From IMG/VR virus record IMGVR_UViG_2872185964_000003: DNA of 26,705 bases, one strand, 5' to 3'. The notes under the pieces are model-generated. The model was not told the DNA's origin. It worked only from the letters and a program-made list of their open reading frames with translations, and ran no database searches. Position numbers and translations under genes: made by a program. This DNA is from a virus (Duplodnaviria; Heunggongvirae; Uroviricota; Caudoviricetes). Positions 6,534-9,102 of the stretch are shown here, piece by piece. The first letter of the stretch is position 1, and every line of letters begins with the position of its first letter.

Positions 6534-6689
6534 CTACTCCCTCCCTGTGCGGCATGGTCGCATGTGCGTGCGGAGGGGTTACTGCTTTTTGTTGTCGCCG
6601 TGGCGGGAGAACGGCGCAGGGGTGAGATTACGCGCGTGGTGGGTGATGATTGTTGCTGAATCATTTAACGGATACAAGGGGCTGAAGCT

Positions 6690-7874
6690 ATGAGTGAAAC
6701 TCGTTTTCATGGTGCCCGTGTTACGGAGAATACCGACCTGGTAACAGCGATTAACGATGTTGATTCCAGCGTTATCGGTATCGTGGCAACGGCGGATGAT
6801 GCGGACGCGAAGCTGTTCCCGCTGAACAAGCCCACACTGCTGACCCGCGTCAATGACGTGCTGGGAAAATGCGGGACAACGGGGACGCTTTATCGTGCGC
6901 TTAAGGCCATCGCAGACCAGGTGAGCACAAAGGTGATCGTCGTTCGCGTGGCTGAACACAAAGAAGAAGACGGAAAGACGCAGGATCAACTGGTTATCGG
7001 TGGTTCTGAGGATGACGGCAGCTATACGGGGATGTATGCGCTGCTTGTTGCAGAGCAGGATGAAAGCATCGGATACCGTCCGCGTATTCTGGCCGCGCCG
7101 GAGCTGGACACGGAGGCGGTAACAAAATCCCTGTGCGTGATTGCAGATAAACTGCGCGCGTTTGTGTATGCCTCATGTCATGGCTGTAACACGATGGCCG
7201 AGGCAATTACCTACCGCCAGAAATTCAACGAACGTGAGGTGATGCTCTTATGGCCGGACTTCATCGCCTACAACCCGAAAAATGGCAAAAACGAAACGTT
7301 CCCCGCGCCTGCCTATGCGTGCGGCCTTCGTGCGTACATTGACCATGAACAGGGATGGCACAAATCGCTGTCCAACGTTCCGGTTAAAAATGTGCTGGGG
7401 ATGTCGAGGCATGTGTTCTGGTCGTTGCAGGCCGAAGACAGCGATGCCAACAGCCTCAACAACAAAGAAATCACGACCATTATTCGTCGCAACGGGGTCC
7501 GCTTCTGGGGTAACCGCACACCGGAAACGAACGCCTACATCTTTGAGGTGTATACCCGAACCGCACAGGTGCTGGCTGATTCAATTGCGGAAGCGCAGTT
7601 TGAAACCATCGACAGTCCACTGACGCCTGCGAATGTGAAGGATGTTATCAGTGCCATCAGGGCAAAACTGGATTCACTGGTGACTGCCGGGAAACTGATT
7701 GGCGCGGAGTGCTGGTATGACGTGGTGGATAACAGCACCACGGATTTACGTCAGGGACGTGTGCGTATTCGCTACAAATATACGCCCGTTCCGCCACTGG
7801 AAGACATGGAGCTTTACCAGACGTTTACTGATGAATACTTTGAACCCGCATTTGCGGTGCTGGGAGGTGCCTGA
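6690..7874 (+). CDS. FI: Contractile tail sheath protein (P2 gpFI-like), 394 aa
   Basis: Intact ORF with AAGGGG RBS and a sheath-like sequence; its stop overlaps the FII start (ATGA). Confidence 0.9.
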   Translation: MSETRFHGARVTENTDLVTAINDVDSSVIGIVATADDADAKLFPLNKPTLLTRVNDVLGKCGTTGTLYRALKAIADQVSTKVIVVRVAEHKEEDGKTQDQLVIGGSEDDGSYTGMYALLVAEQDESIGYRPRILAAPELDTEAVTKSLCVIADKLRAFVYASCHGCNTMAEAITYRQKFNEREVMLLWPDFIAYNPKNGKNETFPAPAYACGLRAYIDHEQGWHKSLSNVPVKNVLGMSRHVFWSLQAEDSDANSLNNKEITTIIRRNGVRFWGNRTPETNAYIFEVYTRTAQVLADSIAEAQFETIDSPLTPANVKDVISAIRAKLDSLVTAGKLIGAECWYDVVDNSTTDLRQGRVRIRYKYTPVPPLEDMELYQTFTDEYFEPAFAVLGGA

Positions 7875-8334
7875 TGGCTGTGCCAAAACATCTTCGCTTT
7901 TTTACGCTGTTTGTGGATGGTGAAAACGAAGTGGGTAATGTGACGTCCGTCACTCTGCCTAAGCTGACGCGCAAAACCGACAGCTACCGGGTGGTGGCAT
8001 GATGGGTGCGGTAAGTATTGATCTCGGTCTGGACGACTCCGCGCTTGATGCGAGCTTTGTCATGGGGGCGCAGTTCGTGAGCTGTTCCTTAAGTATGGCG
8101 GCACGATTGACGGCACGCTGCTGCGTTTTGCGGGTGAATACTACACCGATGCAGAAAGCGACCTGTATGAAGTCGAAATGCGCGGACGTGTGACGGAAAT
8201 TGATATGGGGGAAGCCAAACAGGGCGAAGCCACATCACACACTTACGCCATTAAAACACCTACTACAAGCTGAGTGTTAACGATCGCCCGTTGTGGGAGA
8301 TTGACCTGCTGAACTTCATTTACCGGAAGGACGG
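7874..8334 (+). pseudogene. FII: Tail tube protein (P2 gpFII-like), three frame breaks and 3' end truncated by IS1
   Basis: MAVPKHLRFFTLFVDGENEVGNVTSVTLPKLTRK... continues in successive -1 frames (...DLGLDD..., ...LFLKYGGTIDGTLLRFAGEYY..., ...YYKLSVNDRPLWEIDLLNFIYRKDG) and ends at the IS1 terminus. Confidence 0.8.
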
Positions 8335-8349
8335 GGTAATGACTCCAAC

Positions 8350-8853
8350 TTATTGATAGTGTTTTATGTTCAGATAATGCCCGATGACTTTGTCATGCAG
8401 CTCCACCGATTTTGAGAACGACAGCGACTTCCGTCCCAGCCGTGCCAGGTGCTGCCTCAGATTCAGGTTATGCCGCTCAATTCGCTGCGTATATCGCTTG
8501 CTGATTACGTGCAGCTTTCCCTTCAGGCGGGATTCATACAGTGGCCAGCCATCCGTCATCCATATCACCACGTCAAAGGGTGACAGCAAGCTCATAAGAC
8601 GCCCCAGCGTCGCCATAGTGCGTTCACCGAATACGTGCGCAACAACCGTCTTCCGGAGCCTGTCATACGCGTAAAACAGCCAGCGCTGGCGCGATTTAGC
8701 CCCGACGTATCCCCACTGTTCGTCCATTTCCGCGCAGACGATGACGTCACTGCCCGGCTGTATGCGCGAGGTTACCGACTGCGGCCTGAGTTTTTTAAGT
8801 GACGTAAAACCGTGTTGAGGCCAACGCCCATAATGCGTGCAGTTGCCCGGCAT
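8350..8853 (-). CDS. insB: IS1 InsB-like transposase ORF
   Basis: 167-aa ORF inside IS1 with an InsB-like sequence. Confidence 0.9.
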
Positions 8854-9047
8854 CCAACGCCATTCATGGCCATATCAATAATTTTCTGGTGCGTACCGGG
8901 TTGAGAAGCGGTGTAAGTGAACTGCAGTTGCCATGTTTTACGGCAGTGAGAGCAGAGATAGCGCTGATGTCCGGCAGTGCTTTTGCCGTTACGCACCACC
9001 CCGTCAGTAGCTGAACAGGAGGGACAGCTGATAGAAACAGAAGCCAC
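8772..9047 (-). CDS. insA: IS1 InsA-like protein
   Basis: 91-aa ORF with an N-terminal CxxC...CxxC zinc finger and HTH region, overlapping the insB frame. Confidence 0.9.
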
Positions 9048-9102
9048 TGGAGCACCTCAAAAACACCATCATACACTAAATCAGTAAGTTGGCAGCATCA
9101 CC

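Follow-up and report, generated by a model that had tools for sequence, protein, structure and literature searches.

The tail region of a defective P88-like prophage keeps its native gene order and very probably bears a single IS1-bounded deletion

In phage P2 (Peduovirus), the late genes are annotated in the order V-W-J-I-H-G-Z/fun-FI-FII-E-E'-T-U-D-ogr, all on one strand, with D as the last gene of the F operon. The P88 group shows a different layout: D (-), then FI, FII, E, E', T and U (+), an invertase gene (-), an invertible segment, and H, I, J, W and V (-). P88 is annotated with this order, as are five Escherichia coli prophages that occupy the same locus (ETEC4088, GDSC2BY4G, EC12, O103:H2 12009, and AR_0128). 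Compared with P2, these phages have the FI-U block in the opposite orientation, with D and ogr outside it and with a Gin-type invertible fibre segment where P2 has the simple H-G pair. Both P88 and phiSM can be induced or show spontaneous activity (PMC5285337, PMC6456863), and because they are active, the divergent D/FI layout builds working virions; the text of the P88 paper contains nothing on gene order or on an invertase. Here, we describe a stretch of 26,705 nucleotides (IMG/VR record IMGVR_UViG_2872185964_000003), hereafter called the window, which is a dead P88-like prophage remnant (genus Xuanwuvirus, Peduoviridae) at the ihfA-hok locus. We focus on positions 6534 to 9102, where the tail genes FI and FII meet a copy of the insertion sequence (IS) IS1 and, beyond it, the tail-fibre gene H. 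An earlier note on this DNA, which took the P2 order as its template, had read this region as a rearrangement with FI and FII inverted.

The fibre segment of the intact relatives resembles the Mu Gin/G, P1 Cin/C, e14 Pin, and Hin/hix switches. These prophages have a Gin-like recombinase and two inverted sites of ~26 to 30 bp with a CCGAGG core, and they carry two alternative fibre C termini, each with its own assembly gene. The recombinase of the relatives matched the Mu Gin structures 3uj3 and 4m6f (E of ~1e-99), and the 2.7-kb segment is an invertible tail-fibre segment of the Gin/Cin/Pin type, within the Hin family, which uses 26-bp sites (PMC3798978).

The prophage remnant starts in the window with a hok/gef gene adjoining the chromosomal ihfA locus. 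By exact-protein look-up, the window lies in assembly GCA_002950295.1 (record CP026872.1); the closest protein cluster of one of its genes carries the label Shigella boydii, and the density of IS elements would suit a Shigella-like genome. By blastn, P88 (NC_026014) was 97.5% identical to window positions 5429 to 8334 and 97.8% identical to positions 9526 to 21825, while the ETEC4088 prophage was 99.6 to 99.7% identical to the window. Nucleotide identity across the structural genes thus places the element among the P88-like phages. D, the D/FI spacer, FI, FII, H, I, J, W, V, and the head genes are in the same order and orientation as in P88, and the genes that remain follow the P88-group arrangement exactly, the middle of the series having gone through deletion. 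With P2, the window shares gene families and the same functional modules, but amino-acid identity is only 65% for H, 48% for D, and 45% for FI, and the co-oriented late order H-G-FI-FII-E-T-U-D-ogr is not that of the window. The co-orientation from which the earlier note argued is correct for P2 itself, as the annotation of that phage confirms, but P2 does not serve as a model for this element. Compared with P88, the window lacks 6,880 bp, a gap that takes in the end of FII, the end of the fibre gene, and everything between them. It additionally carries IS1 and, within ogr, IS2; D is interrupted by a nonsense codon, the capsid gene has an 11-bp deletion, and IS3-family fragments replace much of the early region.

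The structure at IS1 became simple when the window was aligned with GDSC2BY4G (L005), in which the fibre segment is naturally in the flipped state. Against this reference, the window consists of two colinear plus-strand blocks on either side of IS1, with window positions 1728 to 8334 corresponding to L005 1397 to 8010 and positions 9103 to 22482 corresponding to L005 14891 to 28291; nothing else had moved. The gap at IS1 amounts to 6,880 bp (L005 8011 to 14890, equal to NZ_CP136025.1 2,152,047 to 2,158,926), and the identical figure was obtained with the ETEC4088 sequence (L003) after its fibre segment was flipped in silico. A single IS between flanks that match an undeleted reference in order and orientation, but leave a gap in it, is the pattern of an IS-mediated deletion, and one simple deletion of 6,880 bp is the sole event at IS1. 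According to the GDSC2BY4G annotation, the block deleted on the tail side comprises the final 49 nucleotides (nt) of FII, followed by E, E', T, and U. On the fibre side, it comprises the Gin-type invertase gene and one of the crossover sites, the alternative fibre end that was not expressed, and the two fibre-assembly genes; the expressed fibre gene itself lost its final 278 nt (~92 codons). Consistent with this, tblastn searches of the 26.7-kb window with P2 and P88-type proteins gave no match for E, E', T (the tape measure), U, G/tail-fibre assembly, or the serine invertase whose gene adjoins the invertible segment in the relatives; the earlier note had rightly listed E, the tape-measure gene T, U, and the fibre-assembly genes as missing. 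With E, E', T, U, and both assembly genes gone, the element cannot build tails. Its virion gene set is further reduced by the truncation of FII and H and by the splitting of ogr by IS2, and the element is a defective remnant, not a functional phage.

The IS1 copy has the expected length of ~768 bp and imperfect 23-bp terminal inverted repeats, GGTAATGACTCCAACTTATTGAT and GGTGATGCTGCCAACTTACTGAT. Its open reading frames insA (8772 to 9047) and insB' (8350 to 8853) both matched NCBIfam transpos_IS1, and its coding strand carries the frameshift motif TTAAAAAAC. It is the only IS1 copy in the window. A simple IS1 insertion normally gives 8- to 9-bp duplications, and IS1 transposes replicatively within a molecule (PMC12428005). 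Here, the flanking 9-mers differ, GAAGGACGG at positions 8326 to 8334 and ATTCAACCC at positions 9103 to 9111, so there is no 8- to 9-bp target duplication, as the earlier note had observed. This absence argues for a secondary rearrangement and not against the identity of the element as IS1. The structure is one IS1 copy between colinear flanks, without a duplication. These three features at the joint, its flanks being colinear with an undeleted reference, link it to the adjacent (replicative) deletions made by IS1. That IS1 marks a deletion or an inversion rather than a simple insertion had been proposed before; the deletion was borne out, with 6,880 bp gone exactly at the IS1 ends, while we rejected an IS1-mediated inversion in view of the single IS1 copy and the native orientation of the genes.

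On the other side of IS1, the minus-strand gene H ends in the element, as had been noted: its open reading frame (9098 to 10810) reads 5 nt into IS1. Three points had been overlooked, namely, that FII is truncated, that the C-terminal part of H is an alternative cassette of the invertible segment, and that the deletion also took away the Gin-type invertase. A map drawn against ETEC4088 has a compound appearance. Window positions 1728 to 8334 correspond to L003 6397 to 13010 and are followed by IS1, positions 9103 to 9550 correspond to L003 18074 to 17627 on the opposite strand, and positions 9526 to 22449 correspond to L003 20314 to 33259. The 25-bp overlap between the two latter high-scoring segment pairs (HSPs) falls on an inverted site pair (L003 17627 to 17656 and 20309 to 20338) with the core CCTCGG/CCGAGG. 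When positions 17644 to 20321 of ETEC4088 were flipped in silico at these cores, window positions 9103 to 22449 became one colinear HSP. Both crossover sites are present in the relatives, and the window keeps one, which is a precise half-and-half hybrid. The N-terminal part of H was 99.1% identical to residues 1 to 569 of the GDSC2BY4G protein. The alignments show a past inversion that fused H to the alternative C-terminal cassette. This is a natural state, and the fusion of constant H to the alternative cassette was found in 327 complete E. coli genomes, GDSC2BY4G among them. An invertible fibre segment can make a simple deletion seem compound unless the reference shares its flip state. Compared with Fis-dependent serine invertase switches, the window has been stripped of its invertase, of one site and one cassette, and of both assembly genes, and the switch no longer exists; because a single crossover site remains, the fibre orientation is frozen.

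The earlier note had also described a 155-bp junction joining the start of FI to the divergent start of D. The spacer is indeed divergent, and the D start codon at 6531 to 6533 sets its length at 156 bp, but it is not a new junction. Window positions 5429 to 8334, which run from the 3' end of D across the spacer into FI and FII, aligned with P88 as a single uninterrupted colinear HSP. Furthermore, a 701-bp probe centred on the spacer was colinear at 95 to 99% identity in 1,355 of 5,426 complete E. coli genomes and was colinear in 13 phage records too. A search for coding remnants of U or G had been suggested; tblastn with P2 and P88-type proteins found none in the 156-bp spacer. The spacer also contained no Ogr-type late-promoter dyad (TGT-N12-ACA), the 8 matches in the window against 6.5 expected being attributable to chance, and a scan of positions 6300 to 9300 for sigma-70 promoters and terminators gave chance-level results only. 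The divergent D/FI layout is thus native to P88-like phages, with a block orientation that is ancestral to the genus, and the spacer is a native intergenic region, not a breakpoint. FI and FII do lie on the plus strand, as had been stated, but this orientation is native in P88 and the five prophages, and the claim that FI-FII were inverted at this locus fell. The earlier finding describes the sequence correctly but sets it against the wrong template. For about one-quarter of the E. coli "P2-like" prophages, P2 is unsuitable as a template, and because their sheath-to-U operon is natively reversed, "inversion" calls made against P2, automated or by eye, are false.

In our judgment, the window very probably derives from a native-order P88-like prophage with a flipped fibre segment that then underwent one IS1-bounded deletion of 6,880 bp. 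The invertase had flipped the fibre segment and thereby joined H to the alternative cassette. IS1 would then have inserted at one of the two breakpoints, and intramolecular replicative transposition into the other breakpoint, that is, an adjacent deletion, would have left one IS1 and no target duplication. Replicative adjacent deletion is a classical outcome of IS1 activity and, going by the reference lists of PMC12428005 and PMC1550401, was reportedly the subject of work by Turlan and Chandler in 1995. This route is the likeliest mechanism, although, compared with described IS1 adjacent deletions, it is read here from the product, and neither an excised circle nor an intermediate was seen.

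Several observations weigh against this history. An adjacent deletion and a recombination between two direct IS1 copies leave an identical product. Neither the left nor the right IS1 junction was found in the GTDB species-representative genomes, and the right junction was not found in the metagenome contigs searched. When IS1 with 200-bp flanks, and likewise a larger query, was compared with the 5,426 complete E. coli genomes, matches covered only IS1 and a few chance bases, and an intermediate or sister with either junction was absent from those collections. By exact-protein look-up, the truncated fibre protein is a singleton cluster from one contig of one assembly. Finally, the many uncorrected homopolymer errors point to limited polishing of the assembly, although such under-calling lowers trust in single-base features and not in kilobase-scale structure.

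The two-copy route is, in our view, possible rather than likely. IS1 would have inserted twice independently with a common orientation, into FII at target GAAGGACGG and into the fused fibre gene at target ATTCAACCC, before RecA-dependent recombination deleted the 6.9 kb and left one IS1 with one copy of each duplication. This product equals the single IS1, unmatched 9-mers, and colinear flanks that we observed, and several insertions are plausible in a window dense in IS elements (IS2, IS1, and IS911/IS1203-type fragments). However, no genome with either single insertion was present in the collections searched, and three events are needed; we prefer the adjacent deletion because two events suffice for it. 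An assembly artefact, in which two IS1 copies with 6.9 kb between them were collapsed by the assembler, would agree with the limited polishing, but we consider it very unlikely. The error pattern indicates long reads, which easily span a 768-bp repeat, the chromosome-sized single contig of 4.71 Mb resolves several other IS copies in the window, and both breakpoints lie in the same element, in an orientation giving a clean deletion. We attach still less weight to the idea that the 6.9-kb block was released as an IS1-bearing circle and re-integrated elsewhere in the same 4.7-Mb chromosome; were this true, the Gin-type invertase and the tail genes would survive away from the prophage, and the invertase could act in trans on other invertible segments. 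Inversion of FI-FII from a P2-type ancestor by IS1 or another agent, creating the 155-bp junction, has next to no credibility, since the FI-U block does face the opposite way relative to P2 but does so together with the spacer in the 1,355 E. coli genomes and in active phages, with no IS1 nearby and no U or G remnant in the spacer, and since an IS1-mediated inversion leaves two inverted copies where the window has one.

With the deletion as the preferred explanation, the lesions outside it can be set apart (Table 1). The IS2 element in ogr has a TnpB that scored 727.6 bits against a cutoff of 597 and the ends TAGACTGGCCCC and TGGATTTGCCCC, as expected of IS2. Unlike the IS1 scar, it is a simple insertion, and it forms an independent inactivating lesion. 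In D, a G-to-T substitution at position 6413 changes the Ser41 codon from TCA to TAA on the coding strand, relative to both ETEC4088 and GDSC2BY4G; this nonsense mutation is genuine-looking and independent of the IS1 event. The major capsid gene (P2 family, minus strand) is frameshifted by an 11-bp deletion near position 18090 (CACGGTAAATC in ETEC4088) with 2-bp microhomology, which is probably real because it is not a homopolymer event. Only the IS events, the nonsense change in D, and the loss of 11 bp from the capsid gene were treated as real, and the last two, together with IS2 in ogr, confirm that the prophage is dead.

The single-base differences are of another kind. Compared with ETEC4088, the window has 19 single-base indels, every one of them a loss; 17 fall in homopolymer runs of at least 3, 15 of these 17 in G/C. 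They include a one-base contraction of a G run in D (6489) and three one-base homopolymer contractions that break the FII frame (7988, 8063, and 8252). Such one-sided losses suggest uncorrected long-read homopolymer errors, and the frameshifts in D (6489), FII, V, the terminase gene, and the cargo gene between ogr and D are probably technical. Biological pseudogenization by the D and FII frameshifts was mostly rejected on the same grounds, and frameshift "pseudogenes" in this assembly are not to be trusted at face value. In FI, a single amino acid differs from the ETEC4088 sheath protein.

Table 1. Positions of the features in and around the IS1-bounded deletion, with the other lesions of the window
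Feature	Position in window	Strand	Remarks
IS2 (IS3 family) in late activator gene ogr	401-1727	+	5-bp duplication ACGGG at 396-400 and 1728-1732
Tail gene D (late control D family)	5425-6533	-	98% identical to GDSC2BY4G D, residues 8-369
Intergenic spacer between divergent D and FI	6534-6689 (156 bp)		Inside the P88 HSP
Tail sheath gene FI	6690-7874	+	Intact, 394 amino acids; Pfam sheath domains
Tail tube gene FII	7874-8334	+	Cut by IS1 after codon 155 of 170
IS1	8335-9102 (768 bp)	-	Complete ends, insA, insB', A6C frameshift motif
Alternative variable C-terminal fibre cassette	9103-9521	-	Flipped-state invertible segment; colinear with GDSC2BY4G
Hybrid Gin-type crossover site TTCTCGTAAACCGAGGTATTCGATAACGGC	9522-9550		Left half from one ETEC4088 site, right half from the other
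Tail-fibre gene H, constant N-terminal part	9551-10810	-	Pfam Phage_tail_fib, Phage_fiber_2
Single-base losses	259, 2590, 4861, 6489, 6574, 7988, 8063, 8252, 10874, 12899		Relative to ETEC4088
Single-base losses, continued	14635, 15513, 18031, 19197, 19815, 20849, 21120, 21697, 22045		Relative to ETEC4088

There is nothing new at positions 6534 to 9102. The parts are all familiar: a prophage of the genus Xuanwuvirus, the elements IS1 and IS2, the scar of an IS1 deletion, and a Gin-type fibre switch that was caught in one state and subsequently disabled. The region represents ordinary genome decay of little biological weight, with another IS-rich enterobacterial genome eroding its prophage, and it adds another case of an IS1 deletion scar without target duplication. 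At the other end of the remnant, window positions 22488 to 26705 carry Ead/Ea22-like, plasmid-stability, and ParM genes. The parM gene is truncated near position 24060 by IS3-family fragments (IS911-like and IS1203/IS629-like), beyond which lies an integrase gene, and the replication/early region of the relatives is missing from the window.

Between ogr and D, the window contains a low-GC (~33%) gene on the minus strand (2059 to 5176), which is intact in ETEC4088 and GDSC2BY4G, where it encodes 1,039 amino acids (WP_282834320 in ETEC4088) and is annotated as an "MFS transporter". The same slot holds SIR2 and an ATPase/ATP-binding protein in EC12 (L007 1517 to 4965), GmrSD in O103:H2 12009 (L008 1350 to 2933), and a 221-amino-acid hypothetical protein in AR_0128 (L002 11307 to 11972), and it is empty in P88. 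From its gene content, the ogr-D interval behaves as a variable cargo or defence hotspot of P88-like prophages.

The 1,039-amino-acid protein had no match in Pfam, PADLOC, NCBIfam, PHROGs, or the sequences of the Protein Data Bank (PDB). Its family comprises at least 178 clusters, all of them lacking Pfam domains, from Enterobacterales and other Gammaproteobacteria, and the neighbours of distant family members include DUF3800, HNH, TIR, FRG, AAA_15/21, RES, and PIN/MazE genes. An AlphaFold model of the protein (predicted local distance difference test score [pLDDT] of 82, predicted template modelling score [pTM] of 0.68) showed a four-segment N-terminal membrane bundle, which holds most of the invariant residues, a large helical middle, and a C-terminal alpha/beta region. 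In three fold searches, HK97-type capsid proteins and encapsulins came up repeatedly. With BFVD as the database, Foldseek returned almost only major capsid proteins (best E of 3e-5, template modelling score of ≤0.49 on the target), and with PDB it gave weak matches. The capsid resemblance is a fold-level lead from the model and not proof, and the protein may be hypothesized to be a membrane-anchored, capsid-mimicking defence candidate. No other object in the window is as unusual as this orphan membrane protein and its capsid-like domain, although it lies outside positions 6534 to 9102.

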